Positions 10,042-19,319 are shown, counted from the first letter of the stretch. The stretch is DNA of 64,000 bases from Dehalococcoidia bacterium (GCA_040882355.1 JBBEBM010000060.1:1-64000); one strand, 5' to 3'. Numbers and translations are program-made. The notes: generated from the letters alone by a model not told the origin.

Positions 10042-10455
10042 ATGCTATGGTTGCCGCACCTGGAGCGAGGTGGGAACCGGGAGCATGGATTGCGTAAACT
10101 TCCTCGGCTCTCGCTGACTCGGCTCACCATGCTGGCGGCAGCGATGGTGGTGGGCTATCTGCTTTTCTCTCTCGCAGGCGACGTCCTCCTCTCGAACCGC
10201 CTCAGCGCCGAGGAGCAACACACTCGGAACCAGATCGCCGAGCTCGAACGCCAGGAACGGGAGCTGACCGTCATGCGCGAGCGGCTCCAGAGCGACAGCT
10301 ACGTCGAGGGCGTCGCTCGGCGCGTGCTTGGCCTGGTGCGGCCGGGCGAGACGCTCGTCATCGTCTCATCGAGCGTCACGCCCACGCCCACCGCCACGCC
10401 ATCGACCGGCGACGACGAGGCGCGCCCCTGGTGGGAGGAGACGGACGGGCCGTAG
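10042..10455 (+). CDS. Septum formation initiator (FtsB/DivIC family)
   Basis: TM helix, coiled coil and YVEGVARRVLGLVRPGE motif. Confidence 0.8.
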   Translation: MLWLPHLERGGNREHGLRKLPRLSLTRLTMLAAAMVVGYLLFSLAGDVLLSNRLSAEEQHTRNQIAELERQERELTVMRERLQSDSYVEGVARRVLGLVRPGETLVIVSSSVTPTPTATPSTGDDEARPWWEETDGP

Positions 10456-10613
10456 TACCACGCGGGCGGAGGCCGCCGCCGGCGGGCGCTTCACCAGACA
10501 GGACCAGGAAGAGCCCGCCCGCGAGGTACCGGGCGCACCGCCACTGCACTAGCAGGGTGCCGAAAGCACTCACGCCTACCCTTCCCACCCGCCCGCCCAG
10601 GAAGGAAATTGGG

Positions 10614-10623
10614 NNNNNNNNNN
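10614..10623. other. Assembly gap (10 N)
   Basis: Run of n. Confidence 1.
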
Positions 10624-10782
10624 GGGGCAGCGCCCCTCTGCACTCCCCTCCCTCAGCGCCCCTGTTAGCATCCGGAGCCTCTTGTCCACGCCGGTCAGGC
10701 TAGCGTCCTGCGATGCATCCCCCAAGGGATTATCATGGGGGCGAGTATCCGCGTATGACCGGAGTGCCTGTGTGTGTTCGAT

Positions 10783-12249
10783 ATGTCTCAGAGTAAACGA
10801 GCCGCCTTGTTCAGCGCGGGCGCCTCTCTCGCGCCGCCGCGCGCGCTCGTCGCGCGGGTGCGACGCTTCATCCGCGAGGGCGCTCTCATTCGCCCGGGCG
10901 ACCGGGTGCTGGCCGGCGTCTCCGGCGGGCCCGACTCGACGTGCTTGCTGTTGACGCTCGCGGCGCTGCGCCGCTCGCTTGGCTTCGACCTGCACGTCGC
11001 GCACTTCGACCACCAGCTCCGCGGACCGCGCGCCGCCGAGCGAGAAGAACGCTTCGTGCGCTCGCTGTGCCAGGCGCTCGCGGCGCCGCTGGTCAGCGGC
11101 GCCGGCGACGTGCGCGCGCACGCCCGCGGGTACCACCAGTCCGTGGAAGAGGCAGCGCGCGAGCTGCGTTATCGCTTCCTGGCGCAGGCCGCGCGCGACG
11201 GCGGTTGCGCCATTGTCGCCGTTGGCCACACGCGCGACGATCAGGCAGAGACGGTGCTCCTCCACATCGTGCGGGGCAGCGGTCTCAGAGGCCTGGCGGC
11301 GATGGCGGCCGCGAGCGCCTGGCCCACCGGCCGTGGGCGCAACACGCCCCGCCTCGTGCGCCCGCTCCTTGCGCTCTCGCGCGACGACACCGAGGCATGC
11401 TGTCGGGAGGCGGGCGTCGAACCGCTGCATGATCCGTCGAACCGCTCGCAGGCGCACCTGCGCAATCGCGTCCGAAGCGAGCTGCTCCCCCTGCTCCGCG
11501 ACTACAACCCGCGCATCGAGGACGCGCTCGTCCGCCTCGCCGGCGCCGCTTCGAGCGACATTGAGGCGCTGGAGGCGCTCGCTGCCGAAGCGCTGGCGGG
11601 CGAGGCTGCGCGTGATGGCACGGTACGGCTCGACCGCAAGCGGCTCGCGGCGCTGCCGGAGGCGCTCGGCCGCCACGCCGTGCGGCTGGCCGTCGCCCGG
11701 TTGCTGGGCGACAGGCGCAACCTGAGCGACCGCCACGTTCAGGCCGTGCTCCGCGCTGCTGAAGGGCCTGCCGGCACGCGGCTCGACCTGCCGCGCGGCC
11801 TGTGCGTAGAAGTGCGGCGGGCCAGCGTCGTCATCTCGCCGCGAGCAGCGCCCGAAGCGCTGCCGGCGAACGAGCTGGCGCTGCCCGTCCCGGGTATCGT
11901 CAGCTTCGGGCTGTGGCGCATCGAGGCCGAGCTGCTCCATAGGGCGCCCTCTCGGCTACCCGACGACCCGCTCACTGCCTATCTGGACGCGGACGCTTGC
12001 GGGGCCTCGCTGTCGATTCGAACACGCCGGCCCGGCGACCGCTTCCAGTCGCTGGGGCTGGGCAGCCCGAAGAAGCTGCAGGACTTCTTCGTCGACGCCC
12101 ACGTGCCACGTTCGGAACGCGACGGCGTGCCGCTCGTCTGCGGCGAGCGCGGCATCGCGTGGGTCGTCGGGCTGCGCCCGGCCGAGTGGGCGAGGCTGAC
12201 GCCGAAGACGCGCCGGGTGCTCCGGGTGCGCGCAAAACGGCTTTCCTAG
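10783..12249 (+). CDS. tilS: tRNA(Ile)-lysidine synthetase
   Basis: SGGPDS, HFDHQLR, ARELRY, GHTRDDQAET and RNRVR motifs; C-terminal KKLQDFFVD. Confidence 0.95.
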   Translation: MSQSKRAALFSAGASLAPPRALVARVRRFIREGALIRPGDRVLAGVSGGPDSTCLLLTLAALRRSLGFDLHVAHFDHQLRGPRAAEREERFVRSLCQALAAPLVSGAGDVRAHARGYHQSVEEAARELRYRFLAQAARDGGCAIVAVGHTRDDQAETVLLHIVRGSGLRGLAAMAAASAWPTGRGRNTPRLVRPLLALSRDDTEACCREAGVEPLHDPSNRSQAHLRNRVRSELLPLLRDYNPRIEDALVRLAGAASSDIEALEALAAEALAGEAARDGTVRLDRKRLAALPEALGRHAVRLAVARLLGDRRNLSDRHVQAVLRAAEGPAGTRLDLPRGLCVEVRRASVVISPRAAPEALPANELALPVPGIVSFGLWRIEAELLHRAPSRLPDDPLTAYLDADACGASLSIRTRRPGDRFQSLGLGSPKKLQDFFVDAHVPRSERDGVPLVCGERGIAWVVGLRPAEWARLTPKTRRVLRVRAKRLS

Positions 12250-12264
12250 AAGACTTTGACGCCT

Positions 12265-12364
12265 GAATCCTTGACAAGTCCGACCAACGTACTATGCTAT
12301 GAGACATCTGGTGGCAGCACCCTTCAGAGTCTGCTGCGAACTACCTGCGGGGAGGGAGGTTCAT
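12265..12364 (+). promoter_or_regulatory. Promoter/leader module, copy 1 (repeated at 13506)
   Basis: TTGACA-16 bp-TATGCT, hairpin GCAGCA/TGCTGC, SD GGAGG; first 53 nt differ from copy 2 at 3 positions. Confidence 0.7.
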
Positions 12365-13202
12365 GATGAACGGCACGCTTAGGCTAAGGTTTACGGTCCT
12401 GACGTTGTTATTAGGGCTGGCGCTGGCTTTCGCGCTGATCGGAAGCAGCCACGACGCGCGGCGAGCGGAGGCGGCGCTCAGCGCGCCCGACCTTGCGATG
12501 ACCATCGACCATGACGGCGGCGGCGACGACTGCGACACAAGGTCGAGCACGGCGTCGATCGGCACAACCTGCACCGTGACCGTCGGCAACATGTTTACCT
12601 TGAAGGGCAACATCGATAAGGTTGCCGGGCTACCCGGCACCGGGGGCTATATCGTCTTCCAGTTCCAGTTCCTGTATACGAACCCCGGGCTGACCCGAAA
12701 CAACAGGACCGGCTCCATGGAAGTCGGCCCCGACGCAGGCGCGGGCGTCCCGACGTTCTGGAAGAACATGAACGCTGGCTCGGACATACCATGCGCCCCG
12801 AACAGCGAGGTCGATGGCGCTGGCAGCTACTATGTTGACTGCTGGGGGCCAGGGACCAAGTCTTCGTATACCGGCACGCTGGTGGAAGTGGACTTCACCT
12901 GCGCCACACTGGGTACGCGGACCATCACGATGCAAGATGCCGGGACGTACGTGCACAACCAGAGCCACGGCAACACACCGCCGGACGTGGATGGTGACGA
13001 GGTGCTCACGATCGAGTGTGTCACCGGAGCTGCGGTGGGCGGAGTCGCCGGGCCACCCGACGTCGCGCGATCACCCCTGCAGGCGAGCCGCGATCAATCG
13101 GGTCCCGCGGGGTGGCTGACGGCTATGCTCGCTGCTGCGGCGGCGGGCGGCATCGCCTTCGGCGGCGCGTTTTGGTACGCCCGGGGACGCCGCTCCAGCT
13201 AA
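12363..13202 (+). CDS. Secreted cohesin-like beta-sandwich protein with VGG C-terminal anchor
   Basis: Signal peptide ending AEA; paralog of 13633; ends AVGGVAGPPD-spacer-TM-WYARGRR. Confidence 0.75.
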   Translation: MMNGTLRLRFTVLTLLLGLALAFALIGSSHDARRAEAALSAPDLAMTIDHDGGGDDCDTRSSTASIGTTCTVTVGNMFTLKGNIDKVAGLPGTGGYIVFQFQFLYTNPGLTRNNRTGSMEVGPDAGAGVPTFWKNMNAGSDIPCAPNSEVDGAGSYYVDCWGPGTKSSYTGTLVEVDFTCATLGTRTITMQDAGTYVHNQSHGNTPPDVDGDEVLTIECVTGAAVGGVAGPPDVARSPLQASRDQSGPAGWLTAMLAAAAAGGIAFGGAFWYARGRRSS

Positions 13203-13505
13203 GTTGTACGGCATTCCTTGAACGCGAAGGGCTGAGCGTCAACTGCAGCCCGACGCGCGCGGTCGGCAACCACGCCCGGAGGGCGTCGCTGGACTGTGTC
13301 CTGCGCCTGCCGAGGCGTTGCGGCAGATCTGCTCTTGGAGTGCCGCCTGCGCCGGTCGCTTCGGGTGCGTGCCAGAGCGACGGGCCACTTGCTCATCTGG
13401 CTGCGCAGAGGTTGGGGAACTCCCTGGCGGGTCGGTGCTCGCTGGCGAGTGAACCAGGCTCACGTCCGGGCCGAAGCCGGCTCCCGAGAAACCTTCTCTC
13501 CTCCC

Positions 13506-13604
13506 GAATCCCTGACAAGTCCGACCGACGTACTACGCTATGAGACATCTGGTGGCAGGTGAACCCAAGCAGCCTGCCGTGGACCTTTGCGGGAGGGGGT
13601 TCAC
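13506..13604 (+). promoter_or_regulatory. Promoter/leader module, copy 2
   Basis: CTGACA..TACGCT, GAGACATCTGGTGGCAG, hairpin GGCAGG/CCTGCC. Confidence 0.65.
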
Positions 13605-13632
13605 GATTCGCGTAGACAGCGTTCGTCGATCG

Positions 13633-14469
13633 ATGGTCGGCGCTCTGAGGGCGTCGCACACCTGGAGCCTTGCCGTTGCTATCGCCCTTGGCGCCCTGGC
13701 GCTTGGCCATCGGCCGGGCGAGGCCGCCAGCGGCGGGCCCGACATCTCCCTCGCGATCGACGCGGATGGAGGCGGGGACGACTGTGACACACGGTCTGGC
13801 ACGTCCACGGGCGCGACCTGCGCCATCGATCTAGGTGAGCAGTTCGTGGTCAAGGGTAACGTGGACAGCGCGGCCGGGCTCCCCGACATCGATGGCGACA
13901 CGCAGATGGGCTACGCGGGCTTCCAGTTTCGCCTCCAGCACACACCGGGCCTCACGCTGAATAACCCGCCCGGCACGGACACGGAGTTGGGCTTCCCGGG
14001 CCCGTTCTGGCCGGTCTGTGGTAACGGTCGTGGCGATGCCTTGTCGGGACAGACGTACGACATCGTCTGCTTCTCGTCGGGGGCGGAGTCCCTGTTCCTT
14101 GGCAAGGTGGTTGAAGTGACCTACGAGTGCTCGGCGCCCGGTCCGCAAACCGTCACCATGGACGACGCCGGCAGCTATATCCACAACGACGGCCATGGCA
14201 ACCTTCCTCTGGACAAAGAGGGAAACGAGCTGCTCACGATCAACTGCGGCACGACATCCGCCGTCGGCGGCATCGCCGGACCGGCTGCCGCCATGCTTGC
14301 GGCACAGGATCAGGGCGCTGCTTCATCGAGAGGCACTTCGGGGATCACCGGAGGCGGCGCCGCACCTCGCGGCGCTGTTCTGGCAGCCGGAGCGTTTGGC
14401 TGCGCTCTCTGGTTGGCGCGTAGACGGGCCAGGTCCACGGACCCAAAGCTAGGAAGGAGGCAATCATGA
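13633..14469 (+). CDS. Secreted cohesin-like protein with VGG C-terminal anchor (paralog of 12363)
   Basis: Shares DGGGDDCDTRS, KGNxD, FQF and YxHNxxHGN; ends AVGGIAGP...LWLARRR; start uncertain. Confidence 0.7.
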   Translation: MVGALRASHTWSLAVAIALGALALGHRPGEAASGGPDISLAIDADGGGDDCDTRSGTSTGATCAIDLGEQFVVKGNVDSAAGLPDIDGDTQMGYAGFQFRLQHTPGLTLNNPPGTDTELGFPGPFWPVCGNGRGDALSGQTYDIVCFSSGAESLFLGKVVEVTYECSAPGPQTVTMDDAGSYIHNDGHGNLPLDKEGNELLTINCGTTSAVGGIAGPAAAMLAAQDQGAASSRGTSGITGGGAAPRGAVLAAGAFGCALWLARRRARSTDPKLGRRQS

Positions 14470-15404
14470 GGATTGCACAGATCGGTCTCGTCGCGGTTCT
14501 GCTCGCCATCGGCACGATGTTCGTTCAAGAGCGAAGCGCGTTCGCAGCCTTCCATTGCATGCGCATTCACGCGGTGATGGCGGGCTTCAACACAAACAAC
14601 AGTATCCAGTACGTCGAGCTGCGAATGAACACGGGCGGGCAGACCGCTGTGAGCGGCCACGAGGTGCGCTTCTACGACTCGGCCGGCACGCACAAGGCCA
14701 CGTTCACCATCCCTGGTTTCATCAGCAACGGCTCCACCGGCGACTCTATCCTGATCGGCACGAGCGAGTTCAACGCGGCCACCCTGGGCGGCGACGCCGA
14801 CTTCACGTTTTCGATGGCGAACACGACGGGACTGAATGGCGGCGATCCGCTCCACCCTGTCCAGTCTACTGGAGGCCGGATCGAGTTCGCCCCGGGATTC
14901 GACAACTGCGACGTCGACATCACAGCGAGCCCGGGTGAGGTCGACACCGTCGGCTACGGCGGCGGCAGTACGTCCTACGGGTCCTCCGCGGTCGCGCTGC
15001 CCAGCCCAAGCGACAACCGCGCGCTGCGCCTCTCGAACCTCGGGGTCGAGGCGACGAACAACTCGACGGAGTACTCGCTGCAAGCGGCCTCGGCGACCAC
15101 GTTCAGCGTATCGCCGGGTAGTCTGGCGACCGACTTTACGACCCCGCGAAACAACGGCAGGGTCGTGCTGCAGCTCGGAACGAATCCCACACCGACGCCG
15201 ACCATCACCCCTACGCCCACCGTCACGCCCATTCCCCTCGGCGGGGTGGCCGGGGCGCCGGACCTCGACCCAAGCGCGGCCGGAGCGAGCGATAGCTCAG
15301 GTGACGGGTCTGGCACGGCGACGTGGATTGCCCTGGGCATTGCGGGTACGGCGGCTGCGCTCGGCGCAAGCGTCTGGTACGGGAGGAGGCGGCGGGCGCT
15401 CTAG
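14466..15404 (+). CDS. Secreted protein (possibly lamin-tail-like fold) with PT linker and VGG-type anchor
   Basis: Signal ending AFA; FHCMRIHAVM..QYVELRM; PTPTPT linker; PLGGVAGAPD-TM-WYGRRRR. Confidence 0.75.
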   Translation: MRIAQIGLVAVLLAIGTMFVQERSAFAAFHCMRIHAVMAGFNTNNSIQYVELRMNTGGQTAVSGHEVRFYDSAGTHKATFTIPGFISNGSTGDSILIGTSEFNAATLGGDADFTFSMANTTGLNGGDPLHPVQSTGGRIEFAPGFDNCDVDITASPGEVDTVGYGGGSTSYGSSAVALPSPSDNRALRLSNLGVEATNNSTEYSLQAASATTFSVSPGSLATDFTTPRNNGRVVLQLGTNPTPTPTITPTPTVTPIPLGGVAGAPDLDPSAAGASDSSGDGSGTATWIALGIAGTAAALGASVWYGRRRRAL

Positions 15405-15424
15405 CGGCCTGCAATGAGACCACA

Positions 15425-16306
15425 ATGAGCTTCGTACGAGCCGCCTTTCTGATCGTCGCCCTTATGCTTGGCGGGCTCCTGGCCCAGCAGCCGCGCCCTG
15501 CGTTCGCGGACTTTCATTGCATGCGCATCCACGCGGTGATGGGAAGCGCTGCAGCCGGCAGCAACGTCCAGTATGTGGAGCTGCGCATGTCGCTGCTGGC
15601 CCAGAACTTCATCGGCGGGCACAAGATCCGCTTCTACGACGCAAGCAACGTACTGAAGGCGACCTTCACGTTTCCCGGCAACCTCTTCGCGAACGCCCTG
15701 AACGGCGAGTCGATCCTGATCGGCACGCAGGAGTTCAACGCTGCGACCGCCGGGGGCGACGCCGATTTCACATTCTCCATGGCGAACACCGTCGGTAGCA
15801 ATGGCGGCGACCCGCTCCACCCGGTCCAGTCGCCCGGCGGCAAGGTCGTGTTCGCCGGCGAGGTGGGGGACTTCGACTGCAACTTCAACCCGCCGCCCGT
15901 CGACTCTGTGGGCTACGGCGCCTACACGGGGCCGATCGACTTCGGAACGGGACCGGCCCCGGGACTGGCCAATCCGGGCAACACCGTGCTGAGGTTAGGC
16001 ACACTGACGCTCAAGCCATCGAACAACGCGACCGAGTACTCGCTGCAGCTCGCGTCGAGCACGACCTACAGCGTGCCAAGTGGCAACCTCAAGACCGATC
16101 TAGGCACCCCGCGAAATAACGCCAGAATAGTGTTGCAGTTGCCCTCGGCAGTCGGAGGCGTCGTCAGACCGCCCGACATCGCGGGGACAGCGGCCCAGGC
16201 CAGCCGCGACGAAGGGACGAGCTACGGAGGGCTGGTCGTCCTCGCCACGGTCGCTGCTGTTGCCGTGACACTGGCCGGGGGCATACTGTTCTTCAAGCGG
16301 CGTTAA
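15425..16306 (+). CDS. Secreted paralog of 14466 with VGG anchor
   Basis: Shares FHCMRIHAVM, GGDADFTFSMANT and GGDPLHPVQS; ends AVGGVVRPPD-TM-FFKRR. Confidence 0.75.
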   Translation: MSFVRAAFLIVALMLGGLLAQQPRPAFADFHCMRIHAVMGSAAAGSNVQYVELRMSLLAQNFIGGHKIRFYDASNVLKATFTFPGNLFANALNGESILIGTQEFNAATAGGDADFTFSMANTVGSNGGDPLHPVQSPGGKVVFAGEVGDFDCNFNPPPVDSVGYGAYTGPIDFGTGPAPGLANPGNTVLRLGTLTLKPSNNATEYSLQLASSTTYSVPSGNLKTDLGTPRNNARIVLQLPSAVGGVVRPPDIAGTAAQASRDEGTSYGGLVVLATVAAVAVTLAGGILFFKRR

Positions 16307-16377
16307 CCGTTGGGACATCGCGGCGCGTCCTGTGCGCCGGCAGCACATAGTCAAGTCAAGCAAGGAGGAGGAAACGC

Positions 16378-17004
16378 ATGAATACAAGATGGCTACTACG
16401 GTTGACAGGATCGATGGCGGTGAGTCTGGGGGTGCTCCTGGCGCTGGCCTATCAGGCGACTCCGGCTCGGGCGGAGGTCATAAACTTCCGGTCGACGCTG
16501 GACGCGGCCCAGGCGATCTCCACGTGTCCGGGCGGGTCACCGGCTACGGGAAGCGGCACGATGACCTACGATACCGACACGAACCTGCTGACATGGAATA
16601 TCATGTTCAGCAATCTCTCCGGGGCCGTCACGGTCGCGCACTTCCACGGCCCGGCCGCGCCTCTTGTTGACGCCGGTATCCAGGTCACCATCACAGACAT
16701 CACGTCGCCCAGCGTGGGCAGCATGACGATCACCGAGACGCAAGAAACCCAGCTGCGGAACGAGCTGTGGTACACCAACTATCACACAGCCATGTGCGGC
16801 GGCGGCGAGATCCGCGGCCAGGTGCTCTTCGCGCCGGTAGGCGGCATCGCCGAACCGCCAGACGCTGCGGCATCGCCCCTCAAGGCCGGTGCGAACTCAG
16901 ACGGTAACTCCTGGCTCATCGCATCGCTCGCGGCCGCCGCTGGGGTTGCTGTCGTCGTATTCGGCGGCAGCGTCTGGTACGCTAAGGGGCGTTCGCGCGA
17001 CTAG
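16378..17004 (+). CDS. CHRD domain protein with VGG anchor
   Basis: AHFHGPA..WYTNYHT..GGEIRGQV CHRD motifs; PVGGIAEPPD-TM-WYAKGRSR; strong SD. Confidence 0.85.
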   Translation: MNTRWLLRLTGSMAVSLGVLLALAYQATPARAEVINFRSTLDAAQAISTCPGGSPATGSGTMTYDTDTNLLTWNIMFSNLSGAVTVAHFHGPAAPLVDAGIQVTITDITSPSVGSMTITETQETQLRNELWYTNYHTAMCGGGEIRGQVLFAPVGGIAEPPDAAASPLKAGANSDGNSWLIASLAAAAGVAVVVFGGSVWYAKGRSRD

Positions 17005-17029
17005 TCGCCGCGCATCGCCAGGCGACCGC

Positions 17030-17800
17030 ATGAACAGAAGAACCAGACTGGCGTTCTTGGCCACGGCCGCGCTCTTGGGCGCGGCTGTGGCCGCCGCCGT
17101 CTTCCTGATCTCGTCCTCATCGTTCGGAGGCGGCTCGAACCGGCCCTCGGCCGTTATTGTGGACCAGCTCGACCTCACGTACCCGAACCCGGCCTTCGCG
17201 AGGGATGCGACGAGCGTCCTTGAGAAGGCCGGGTTCGAGGTCGACTACTACCCGGGCGAGGAGGTAACGGTCGATTTCTATCGAGAGCTGCCGGCGCGCG
17301 GCTACGACATCGTGCTGATGCGGGCGCACTCAGCTCGCTACCAGGGCTCCTGGCAGGGCGAGCAGAAGGACCTGGTGGAGATCTTCACGTCAGAGGGGTA
17401 CAGTCTCGCCGACCATGCGGAGGAGCAGCAATCGGGCCGCCTGGGCGTCGTCTCCTACTTCGACGACCCGGAACAGCGCCAATACTTCGGCATCACGCCG
17501 GAGTTCATCACCGGGAGCATGCGGGGCGACTTCAATGGCGCGACGGTGATCCTGATGGGCTGCAACGGCCTGAGCACCGGGTCGACCGCGCAGGCGTTCA
17601 TGGACAAGGGCGCCGCCGCGGTGGTCGGCTGGGACGAAGCGGTCTCCGCCGTTCATACGGACGCCGCCACGCTTAGCCTGCTCCGCCACCTTATCGACGG
17701 CGATCTCCCGGCCGATGACGCCGTCGCGGCCGCGATGGACGAGGTTGGCCCGGACGTCCCCTTCGACAGCACCCTCCGAACATACAAGAGCGCAGGCTAA
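17030..17800 (+). CDS. Membrane-anchored caspase/CHAT-like (clan CD) cysteine peptidase candidate
   Basis: N-terminal TM/signal anchor; IVLMRAH(100)S and VILMGC(178) strand-His/strand-Cys pattern; AFMDKGAAAVVGW CHAT-like motif. Confidence 0.6.
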   Translation: MNRRTRLAFLATAALLGAAVAAAVFLISSSSFGGGSNRPSAVIVDQLDLTYPNPAFARDATSVLEKAGFEVDYYPGEEVTVDFYRELPARGYDIVLMRAHSARYQGSWQGEQKDLVEIFTSEGYSLADHAEEQQSGRLGVVSYFDDPEQRQYFGITPEFITGSMRGDFNGATVILMGCNGLSTGSTAQAFMDKGAAAVVGWDEAVSAVHTDAATLSLLRHLIDGDLPADDAVAAAMDEVGPDVPFDSTLRTYKSAG

Positions 17801-18030
17801 CTGACGCAATCCGGCCTGCCGGCGATGCCCGCTTGACGGCAGCAAGCGGCGTGTCGTTTACTCTATGCACACGCGCGGCGCGACTGGCACAAGCGCCGTG
17901 GCACGAACCAGCAGCCAGGGAGGTCGCCATCGCATGCTGTGCTTGGTCATCTCGAGCCCTGCACAGCGCATGCCCGCTGGCCTTGCTGGTCGGAGTACCT
18001 GAGCACTAAGCTGATCATCCGGCGCACCTG

Positions 18031-18059
18031 AGCCACGGGCAAGCGACCCGTGGCTTTTT
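18031..18059 (+). terminator. Intrinsic terminator/attenuator 18 nt upstream of the MFS gene
   Basis: AGCCACGGG-loop-CCCGTGGCT followed by TTTT. Confidence 0.75.
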
Positions 18060-18077
18060 CGTTCTTCGAGGTGCCCG

Positions 18078-19319
18078 ATGAGAATTCTGCACAACCCGAC
18101 CTTTCGCAACCTCTGGGCGGCGAACACCATCTCCAGCTTCGGCACGCTGTTCGGCGCCCTGTCACTGACTGCCCTTATCTATCTGGACGCATCGCCGGCG
18201 GAGATGGGGGTGCTCGCGGCGGCTACGAGCATGCCGGTCCTCCTCTTCGCCCTGGTCGCGGGCGTCTGGGTGGACCGCTTGCCGCGCGTTCCGGTAATGG
18301 TCGCGGCCGATCTCGGCAGGTTCGCGGCACTGATGACGGTACCCGTCGCTGCGGCCGCCGGGCACCTGCGGATCGAGCAGATCTATGCCGTCTCGTTCGT
18401 TGCCGGTTGCCTGAACGTCATGTTCAACCTGGCGTTCCGCTCAGTGCTGCCCGTCCTGGTGCCGCGTGACCGTGTCGTGGACGCTAACAGCACGCTCGGC
18501 ATGAGCGAATCGGTGGCTGCCAGCGCCAGCCCGGCGATCGGAGGTGGCATCGCGCAGGGCGTGGGCGGACCGGTCGCGGTCCTGATCGACGCCACCACGT
18601 TTCTCATATCGGGACTGCTCGTCAGCAGAATCGGGAGCCCGGCTGGCGGTGAGCGACCGAAGCGGCGTTCCGCGCTTGCTGAGGCGTTCGAGGGATTGAG
18701 GGCGGTCGTTCATCAGCCGGTCCTGCGCGCGGTCTTCGGAATGGTCGCGACGTACAGCTTCTTCGGAGGCTTCATCGTCACGCTCTACGGCTTGTGGGTG
18801 ATCGACGGACTGGGCTTCTCCGCGTTCACGCTTGGCGTTCTGCTCGCTTCGGGTGGCATCGGAGCCGTCGTTGGCGCATGGCTCGCCGGGCCGACAGCGC
18901 GCAGCCTCGGCCTCGGCCGCAGTATCGTTGCGACGTACATCGTGGCAGCCGCACTCCTGTTCCTCACGCCGCTCGCCGGGGGACCGGTGTGGCTCGCGTT
19001 CATGATGCTGCTCACGGAGCAGTGCGTGGGCGACGCGTTCTGGACGATCCACAACATCCACGCGATGAGCATGCGGCAGTCGATCACGCCTGACGAGCGG
19101 TTGGGCCGAGTGAACGCGTTCTTCCTTCTCGCCAGCCAGGGTCTGCGGCCGATCGGAGCGCTCATCGCCGGGGTGGCCGCTGGATTCGTCGGAGTGAAGG
19201 CCGGACTCCTCATCTCCGCCGTCGGGATCAACCTGGCGGGACTCTGGCTGATCTTGTCGCCGCTACCGTGGCTCACGGATGCTTCTTGGACTCCGCCGCG
19301 AAGCCAGGCTGAGAAGTGA
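18078..19319 (+). CDS. MFS transporter (DHA3/MFS_3-like)
   Basis: FRNLWAANTISSFG and GVWVDRLPR motifs; about 12 TM segments. Confidence 0.9.
   Translation: MRILHNPTFRNLWAANTISSFGTLFGALSLTALIYLDASPAEMGVLAAATSMPVLLFALVAGVWVDRLPRVPVMVAADLGRFAALMTVPVAAAAGHLRIEQIYAVSFVAGCLNVMFNLAFRSVLPVLVPRDRVVDANSTLGMSESVAASASPAIGGGIAQGVGGPVAVLIDATTFLISGLLVSRIGSPAGGERPKRRSALAEAFEGLRAVVHQPVLRAVFGMVATYSFFGGFIVTLYGLWVIDGLGFSAFTLGVLLASGGIGAVVGAWLAGPTARSLGLGRSIVATYIVAAALLFLTPLAGGPVWLAFMMLLTEQCVGDAFWTIHNIHAMSMRQSITPDERLGRVNAFFLLASQGLRPIGALIAGVAAGFVGVKAGLLISAVGINLAGLWLILSPLPWLTDASWTPPRSQAEK

Follow-up and report, generated by a model that had tools for sequence, protein, structure and literature searches.

The question raised by this locus is whether a C-terminal tail shared by five neighbouring genes is a protein-sorting signal, and whether the product of a sixth gene, directly behind them, is the enzyme that acts on it. 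The locus lies in a 64,000-nucleotide stretch of a Dehalococcoidia bacterium genome (GCA_040882355.1 JBBEBM010000060.1:1-64000), referred to below as the window, and all coordinates are counted from its first letter. The original prediction, made from the DNA alone, was of a dedicated signal with the neighbouring product as its candidate enzyme; this pairing was supported by structure models, co-occurrence across genomes, and docking, the cleavage step being presumed. The locus probably encodes a two-component sorting or processing system composed of substrates with a 'VGG' tail and a membrane-anchored clan CD peptidase. The six genes are as follows, with the E-value (E) of each tail in a search with a tail hidden Markov model (HMM).

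12363 to 13202, + strand: gene 1, cohesin-like passenger, VGG tail at 13032-13199 (tail HMM E 3.2e-23)
13540 to 14469, + strand: gene 2, paralogue of gene 1, atypical VGG tail at 14260-14466 (tail HMM E 8.7e-15)
14466 to 15404, + strand: gene 3, LTD-like passenger, Thr/Pro linker, LGG variant of the tail at 15234-15401 (tail HMM E 1.9e-21)
15323 to 16306, + strand: gene 4, paralogue of gene 3, VGG tail at 16148-16303 (tail HMM E 6.8e-22)
16378 to 17004, + strand: gene 5, CHRD domain, VGG tail at 16834-17001 (tail HMM E 1.8e-24)
17030 to 17800, + strand: gene 6, candidate sorting peptidase of 256 amino acids (aa), tail-less, starting 26 nt past the gene 5 stop

Genes 1 to 5 were found, as had been described, as five co-oriented open reading frames (ORFs) over 12363-17004 on the + strand, and gene 6 was confirmed as a tail-less sixth gene just downstream. 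Genes 1 and 2 are 41-43% identical and genes 3 and 4 47-53% identical (BLASTP; 52-53% for the latter pair without the last 70 aa). Once the last 70 aa were removed, the passengers were alike only within these two pairs and none resembled another across the three types, in agreement with the earlier claim of three unrelated passenger types; across types, alignment was confined to the tails (E 3e-5 to 3e-7). The passenger of gene 1 was assigned to a Cohesin cluster by Atlas structure look-up (template modelling score 0.64) and had no Pfam match (hmmscan, Pfam-A), and that of gene 3 returned Atlas structure rows naming PF00932 LTD, both look-ups being leads only. The CHRD domain of gene 5 was matched by PF07452 (E 7.8e-19). 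The hydrophobic N-termini of genes 1 to 5 are read, by eye, as predicted signal peptides. According to BLASTP alignment to the respective paralogue, the likely start of gene 2 is near 13633 and that of gene 4 near 15425; the start of gene 3 overlaps the gene 2 stop by 4 nt.

The tail begins with the motif V-G-G-phi-x-x-P-x-[DE], which is followed by a low-complexity spacer rich in Ser, Gly, and Asp, then by a hydrophobic helix, and last by an end resembling W-Y-A-R-R-R. The tripartite layout proposed earlier was thereby upheld, with the motif corrected to this form and the long spacer found to be peculiar to the Chloroflexota form of the tail. All five decapeptides that had been quoted are present; their true starts (13032, 14260, 15234, 16148, and 16834 in genes 1 to 5) lie 3 nt before the positions given for them, which mark the V/L codon. 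Counted from this V or L, the motif is 55, 68, 55, 51, and 55 aa from the C-terminus in genes 1 to 5, which reproduces the range of 51-55 aa reported for four of the five; counted from the decapeptide start, the distance is 52-56 aa in four genes and 69 in gene 2. In the tail of gene 2 (14260-14466), Asp is missing at +6, the Gly/Ser spacer is longer, the helix is short, and 13 additional residues follow the Arg cluster; this tail may be a decaying or specialised copy.

Searches with the tail HMM recovered nine full-length tails in this genome (3.33 Mb, 93.9% complete) at E 1.8e-24 to 4e-3, five of them at the cluster, so that the common tail holds and the number of substrates becomes nine, not five. 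Nine tails were also obtained at E<=1e-6 in the whole-genome search, in which gene 2 was the weakest (E 9.2e-9), and the next match after the nine was a helix with an Arg end and no tail motif. Because the HMM recovers nine full-length tails in one genome, the tail family is beyond chance. The other four tails belong to a BD-FAE/alpha-beta-hydrolase esterase (contig C68), two PD40 beta-propellers (C40), and one Pfam-less protein (C1), and the nine ride on at least five unrelated passenger types. When the last 60 residues of gene 5 were compared with a collection of 5.8 billion proteins, only the query itself was returned, a 60-aa low-complexity query being unable to reach significance there.

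Two forms of the tail were distinguished. When 31 long-form tails of the present genome and of public Chloroflexota loci were aligned, every one had G-G and at least 90% had V, the consensus being V-G-G-I-A-E-x-P-x, spacer, S-G-G, helix, W-Y-A-R-R-R. The short (archaeal) form, V-G-G-phi-x-x-P-x-D-K-x-x-L-L-A-P-Y, runs straight into the helix, which is followed by a Lys/Arg cluster; V-G-G, L, and P are invariant in 14 such tails. V-G-G-phi-x-x-P-x-[DE] is common to both, and the motif and helix are separated by 20 or more residues in the Chloroflexota form and by no spacer in the archaeal form. As in tripartite sorting signals, motif, helix, and basic end stand at the extreme C-terminus and occur on several unrelated, predicted-exported passengers per genome; the co-distribution with and adjacency to one enzyme family that go with such signals were also found.

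The tail proved to lie outside the existing CTERM models, a comparison that the earlier account had asked for, NCBIfam matches being sub-threshold throughout. Neither these tails nor eleven tail proteins of other genomes brought any NCBIfam or Pfam sorting model up to its cut-off, and GlyGly-, PEP-, and PGF-CTERM models gave no match at E<=1 (NCBIfam, 17 tail proteins). Three candidate assignments were rejected on score: GVDTG_CTERM (14.1 bits against a cut-off of 29), LPXTG, which was matched by gene 3 alone (TIGR01167, 10.3 against 15.9; PF00746 Gram_pos_anchor, 13.2 against 20), and an anti-sigma model (12.5 against 100).

Gene 6, single-copy in this genome, encodes a short basic N-terminus, one membrane helix (residues ~3-29), a linker of about 10 residues, and a domain of caspase/CHAT fold (~35-256). 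The AlphaFold2 model (predicted local distance difference test, pLDDT, 91.8; predicted template modelling score 0.82) comprises an N-terminal helix, a linker, and an alpha/beta domain in which His100 comes after strand 94-98 and Cys178 after strand 172-175. Both residues are invariant in 30 of 30 aligned homologues, as are Arg98, Glu122, Trp201, and Asp211, and the clan CD-like His/Cys pattern noted at the outset was thus recovered in the alignment and, by model, on a caspase/CHAT fold. As modelled, the protein has the features of clan CD, namely a caspase-like alpha/beta fold and a His that precedes the Cys, each after a strand. The 12 Foldseek matches at E<=1e-3 (1.7e-6 to 6e-4) were all CHAT proteins or separase. 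VIA-align, a fold search independent of Foldseek, gave Z 16.0 for SAVED-CHAT 8tl0_A (root-mean-square deviation, rmsd, 2.8; 178 residues aligned), 14.9 for the anti-sigma factor DdvA (8rot), 12.4-14.6 for separases, 13.0 for RgpB (rmsd 3.1; 176 aligned), 11.1 for legumain, and 9.8 for PIGK (7w72_K), and also matched caspases and metacaspases.

At the sequence level, CHAT PF12770 was unmatched at E<=1 (hmmscan, Pfam-A), where the only match, Epimerase, was rejected at 17.9 bits against a cut-off of 20.9; no C25, C13, C14, or C11 model of Pfam or NCBIfam matched at E<=1, and no relevant sequence match was found in the PDB by protein or by profile. A match to CU044_5270 was likewise rejected (11.5 bits against 100). 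Because the Pfam, NCBIfam, and PDB sequence searches gave no accepted match, the resemblance to clan CD peptidases is one of fold only; judged from its model, gene 6 represents a new family in a known fold class, outside Pfam CHAT. The family is large: a word-indexed search found 275 homologues among 8000 scored candidates, the 120 listed being without exception Pfam-less and named hypothetical protein, and an exhaustive profile search gave 1784, 1024, and 655 cluster representatives at E<=1e-3, 1e-10, and 1e-30. The N-terminus of the homologues is long and very basic, and by the positive-inside rule, applied by eye, the catalytic domain would lie outside the cell, on the same side as the tail motif. 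One homologue (P0046) has its own C-terminal helix and W-Y-A-R-R-R end, and another (P0037) has an N-terminal extension resembling the tail end of the preceding gene, read in frame.

The genomic neighbourhood of the enzyme was examined in 80 public loci encoding a gene 6 homologue, which were scored with HMMs for both tail forms. Of these loci, 73 have at least 1 kb of upstream DNA, and in 37 of them (26/57 bacterial, 11/16 archaeal) a same-strand tail ORF ends no more than 500 bp upstream of the enzyme gene; a tail occurs anywhere in the locus in 45 of 80, and at a looser cut 15 of 17 archaeal loci contain one. Tails make up well under 1% of genes, and the adjacency therefore cannot be chance. 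It is seen in Chloroflexota and in Bathyarchaeia/ANME-1, and since some of the archaeal loci are on very long contigs, one of 1.19 Mb and a chromosome of 1.7 Mb among them, the cross-domain range does not stem from faulty binning. The archaeal arrangement is often one enzyme with one to three substrates, and in the present lineage the substrates have multiplied to many per enzyme. When all ORFs 120 aa or longer from the 80 loci were clustered, no third conserved family emerged around the enzyme, the next families occurring in at most 9 loci; a cluster of ORFs from 55 loci was rejected as a third component and read as an antisense ORF artefact. Several relatives carry 2-4 enzyme copies, and at one locus (G002:C50:10586-12188) two enzyme genes stand in tandem, with tail matches flanking them at 10315-10482 and 12913-13077.

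In a protein of 696 aa (P0264), a NosD/beta-helix and PKD passenger is followed by a VGG motif, then by two helices with a basic loop between them, and finally by a peptidase domain (404-665). This protein is either a fusion of substrate and enzyme that exists in nature or the product of a gene call that reads through, and its layout fits the topology proposed for the enzyme.

A quick maximum-likelihood tree was computed for 79 enzymes, with branch support from the Shimodaira-Hasegawa-like approximate likelihood ratio test (SH-aLRT) only. One branch (SH-aLRT 96) splits a clade that takes in all 15 short-tail loci from a clade that takes in 30 of the 31 long-tail loci. The enzymes of two Chloroflexota metagenome-assembled genomes with short tails (L071 and L078) nest among those of Bathyarchaeia, a placement that suggests transfer of the cassette between the domains. 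There is also a reverse exception (L028), with a long tail and an enzyme sister to an archaeal one. That tail form tracks enzyme clade suggests joint movement of the enzyme and its signal; as labels are shared among relatives, this is supportive and not decisive.

Co-occurrence was assessed in three samples: 41 relatives of the same order, 151 genomes of the phylum at least 90% complete, and 81 genomes of the archaeal class. Among the relatives, 28 of 41 have the enzyme (by family, f1 15/15, f2 0/8, f3 7/8, f4 0/2, f5 5/7). The number of long-form tail matches had a median of 8 (0-30) with the enzyme versus 1 (0-4, mostly weak) without it, and a best tail at E<=1e-7 was present in 27 of 28 enzyme-bearing relatives versus 2 of 13 without the enzyme. 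In the phylum sample the enzyme was found in 2 of 151 genomes, a count that is a floor, and a tail at E<=1e-6 in exactly those two and in none of the other 149; one is the present genome, with the long form, and the other (G221) has the short form, its single tail ending 83 bp ahead of the enzyme match. In the archaeal class both components were found in 17 genomes, the tail only in 7, the enzyme only in 14, and neither in 43, which gives tail matches in 17 of 31 enzyme-bearing versus 7 of 50 enzyme-less genomes. Profiling of tail against neighbour, which had been called for initially, thus showed that the two co-occur and adjoin across Chloroflexota and archaea.

Enzymes of known sorting systems were also looked for. 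A single sortase is encoded in this genome (C29:23459-23887). Of the 41 relatives, 40 have sortase, among them 12 of the 13 enzyme-less relatives, whose tails are few or absent; since its distribution does not track the tail, sortase was rejected as the tail-processing enzyme. For exosortase/archaeosortase, PF09721 had 0 matches in this genome (93.9% complete). The single rhomboid (C37) scored 26 bits against a cut-off of 84 for rhombosortase TIGR03902, by which profile no rhombosortase was found in this genome; generic rhomboids score in like manner in 14 of 14 control genomes.

A model of the tail-enzyme complex reached an interaction prediction score from aligned errors (ipSAE) of 0.88 (0.87, 0.88, and 0.88 in the individual runs), and the best of 3 controls 0.01. 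Of solved complexes, 116 of 157 reach the pass mark, as do 2 of 215 mismatched pairs; this calibration is rough, with user-built alignments, and the score is the model's own confidence. The runs share at least 77% of contacts, with a partner pLDDT of at least 53. The confident interface joins tail residues 1-13, the motif, to enzyme residues 100-104, 116-117, 138-144, 176-179, and 204-207, His100 contacts both motif glycines, and the membrane helices are outside it. The modelled complex supports binding of the motif, and only the motif, in the His100/Cys178 cleft.

From these observations the following mechanism is proposed. The substrate would be exported until its tail helix arrests it in the membrane with the Arg cluster in the cytoplasm. 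The product of gene 6 would be a type II membrane protein, with its basic N-terminus inside, one helix, and the peptidase domain outside, and would bind the motif as an extended strand in the His100/Cys178 cleft. Cys178 would then attack the bond at or just past Gly-Gly with His100 as general acid/base, and the helix and Arg cluster would be removed from the substrate and left behind. Cleavage at the motif by gene 6 is considered likely; we infer its occurrence, the exact bond, the outcome, and the topology. Given cleavage, transfer of the new C-terminus to an envelope acceptor, by analogy with PorU and GPI (glycosylphosphatidylinositol) transamidase, and plain hydrolytic release are judged about equally probable, the envelopes of the hosts differing widely and no acceptor-building gene being linked. 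A fuller version, in which a minimal membrane-anchored clan CD transpeptidase exchanges the helix for a covalent link to a lipid or envelope polymer and so forms a prokaryotic counterpart of GPI transamidase and PorU, is put forward tentatively as a possibility.

Several observations weigh against the proposed system. By the HMMs, 31 of the 73 loci have no tail, and in an enzyme subclade of eight Dehalococcoidia loci (SH-aLRT 100, stem 0.7) no tail gene was found within 8 kb; this subclade (L015, L045, L047, L050, L053, L057, L066, and L072) may be a paralogue with distant substrates or another role. In the archaeal class, 14 of 31 enzyme-bearing genomes had no short-form match, a divergent VGG tail standing beside the enzyme in 2 of them only, and weak tail matches occurred in the 7 of 50 enzyme-less genomes. 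Among individual genomes, G018 has a strong tail, on a 1554-bp contig, with no enzyme found, G031 has partial tail matches covering the helix only, and G026 has the enzyme with a weak adjacent tail (E 3.8e-4). Sorting signals do not usually have a gap like the one of about 20 residues that separates motif and helix in the Chloroflexota form; in well-known sorting signals the motif abuts the helix. The enzyme search in the phylum sample used a stricter first look, the genomes compared are related and not independent, so that the co-occurrence counts overstate the signal, the docking calibration is rough as noted, the signal peptides were judged by eye only, and cleavage, scissile bond, and acceptor are all inferred. 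The tail protein of G018 (L084, G018:C122:2-1144) has a passenger weakly like squalene-hopene cyclase repeats (PF13249, 22.1 bits against 26.2).

The loci and archaeal genomes in which the enzyme was found apart from the tail, and the long Chloroflexota spacer, which could be a simple stalk, would also fit a tail that is a permanent C-terminal anchor with a conserved stalk, beside a clan CD protein that is a co-regulated surface protease or regulator with other targets. An anchor of this kind, however, would need no invariant V-G-G kept across two domains of life, nor would it account for a tail confined to enzyme-bearing genomes in the 151-genome sample, a tail form that tracks enzyme clade, the putative natural fusion P0264, or docking that puts the motif, and not the helix, in the catalytic cleft (0.88 versus 0.01); it is considered unlikely.

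Alternatively, the clan CD protein could bind the motif and leave it uncut, serving as a receptor or chaperone, or as an assembly factor, by which tail-anchored proteins are organised at the membrane. Docking supports binding, catalysis being outside the model, and non-catalytic caspase-fold proteins exist, c-FLIP and Raptor being among the VIA-align rows; the invariance of His100 and Cys178 in all 30 homologues would, however, be unexpected in a family of pseudo-enzymes, and both residues are in the predicted interface, which makes this explanation very improbable. Processing of the tail by a sortase, exosortase/archaeosortase, or rhomboid/rhombosortase, with the neighbour as a bystander, is scarcely credible: the genome does have one sortase and one rhomboid, and the Gly-Gly pair recalls GlyGly-CTERM, but sortase is distributed irrespective of tails, the exosortase and rhombosortase searches of this genome were negative, LPXTG models stayed below cut-off, and GlyGly-, PEP-, and PGF-CTERM models were unmatched.

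The six genes are bracketed by the following putative transcription signals.

12271 to 12298, + strand: promoter-like site (TTGACA, 16 nt, TATGCT) 5' of gene 1, consensus match only
17829 to 17849, + strand: terminator-like hairpin directly 3' of gene 6, with a second at 18030-18056

The promoter-like site is the sole sigma-70-like match within 12000-18200 (0.6 expected) and is a possible start of a six-gene operon; the terminator-like hairpins in the region (4 found versus 3.3 expected) are weak. Weak as the matches are, the two kinds of site suggest that the six genes form one unit. Upstream, at 10774-12249, lies a PP-loop (S-G-G-x-D-S) protein resembling tRNA(Ile)-lysidine synthetase, and downstream, at 18078-19319, a 12-helix transporter of major facilitator superfamily type, both judged by eye; a similar transporter recurs in 7 of 80 enzyme loci. 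Further upstream, the window contains 20 N around 10560-10640, with XXXX in ORFs around 10431-10703, which mark a gap or sequence that was withheld. The segment 12300-17900 was matched by four sediment metagenome DNA runs of one study (69-99% of sampled words), and no RNA run was listed as containing it.

The system was compared with those already described. GPI transamidase PIGK/GPI8 (family C13, clan CD) is membrane-anchored, faces away from the cytoplasm, and cuts at small residues; its site lies upstream of a hydrophilic spacer and a C-terminal hydrophobic segment, which is replaced by a lipid anchor. This layout of small-residue site, spacer, and hydrophobic end is the nearest analogue of the Chloroflexota tail. 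PIGK differs, however, in being eukaryotic and one subunit of a five-protein complex, GPI signals are without a terminal Arg cluster, and the fold match of PIGK to gene 6 (Z 9.8) is weaker than that of CHAT proteins; no GPI pathway is implied here. The best folds are those of CHAT peptidases and separase (SAVED-CHAT, DdvA, and Craspase Csx29; Z 16.0, 14.9, and 12.1-14.6), which share the His-then-Cys dyad with gene 6, but these are cytoplasmic proteases, active in signalling or defence, that carry large regulatory domains, whereas gene 6 is a minimal domain of about 220 aa on a membrane helix.

PorU is a gingipain-family clan CD enzyme, the sortase for type IX secretion (T9SS), which, according to PMC7468200, cuts the C-terminal signal from many unrelated cargos and joins the new C-terminus to an envelope anchor. 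Like PorU, gene 6 would, on its model, be a candidate clan CD processor of many unrelated cargos, and the gingipain RgpB is matched at Z 13.0. Unlike the VGG tail, the signal in T9SS takes the form of a folded domain, some 80 aa long, and not of a motif, helix, and Arg tail; PorU is on the outer membrane of diderm Bacteroidota in a multi-protein complex, whereas gene 6 has an N-terminal membrane helix, no conserved partner gene, and Chloroflexota and archaeal hosts. Look-alikes of the gene 3 passenger in other phyla (Atlas rows) carry the T9SS Por_Secre_tail, and across lineages the LTD-like passenger type seems to be combined with differing sorting signals.

CTERM systems, as presented in 10.1101/2023.06.07.544157, combine a short motif, membrane helix, and basic end, carried by many unrelated exported proteins, with a dedicated enzyme that is often encoded beside its substrate and with patchy co-distribution. 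The VGG system shares this logic with the LPXTG, PEP-CTERM, PGF-CTERM, GlyGly-CTERM, and MYXO-CTERM systems. It differs from them in its motif and in its class of enzyme, their enzymes being a beta-barrel transpeptidase, polytopic membrane proteins, a rhomboid, and a CPBP-type intramembrane protease, and in spanning Bacteria and Archaea with one enzyme family.

No curated model for the tail or the enzyme was found in NCBIfam release 20 or Pfam, and full-text literature searches, which left subscription journals and very recent papers outside, returned no description of the motif or the pairing. Neither was found by a term search of Haft's 2023 myxosortase preprint (10.1101/2023.06.07.544157). 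The logic of a tripartite tail with a dedicated peptidase is known already, as are clan CD transpeptidases; novelty appears to lie in the signal, in the family of the enzyme, and in a range that covers bacteria and archaea, and enzyme and signal appear to have moved between the domains as a cassette. If the transpeptidase reading is true, this would to our knowledge be the first enzyme family of its kind at work in Bacteria as well as in Archaea, and a further, independently evolved class of 'sortase'.

C-terminal sorting decides surface display, and sortase, exosortase/archaeosortase, rhombosortase, myxosortase, and PorU each opened a field, with sortase becoming a widely used protein-ligation tool. 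The present system would extend this list by a small enzyme (about 220 aa) of caspase fold that would recognise a short motif; should the enzyme be a transpeptidase that acts at V-G-G, it could serve as a new reagent for ligation. The system would also offer a case in which to study the repeated origin of transpeptidases among clan CD peptidases, and an example of an enzyme-signal cassette crossing the divide between bacteria and archaea. The cell surfaces of the hosts (uncultured sediment Chloroflexota, Bathyarchaeia, and ANME-1) are almost unexplored, and for these organisms the tail would provide a rule for predicting the surface proteome, covering 1-30 proteins per genome, such as esterases, propellers, cupredoxins, and beta-helix proteins.

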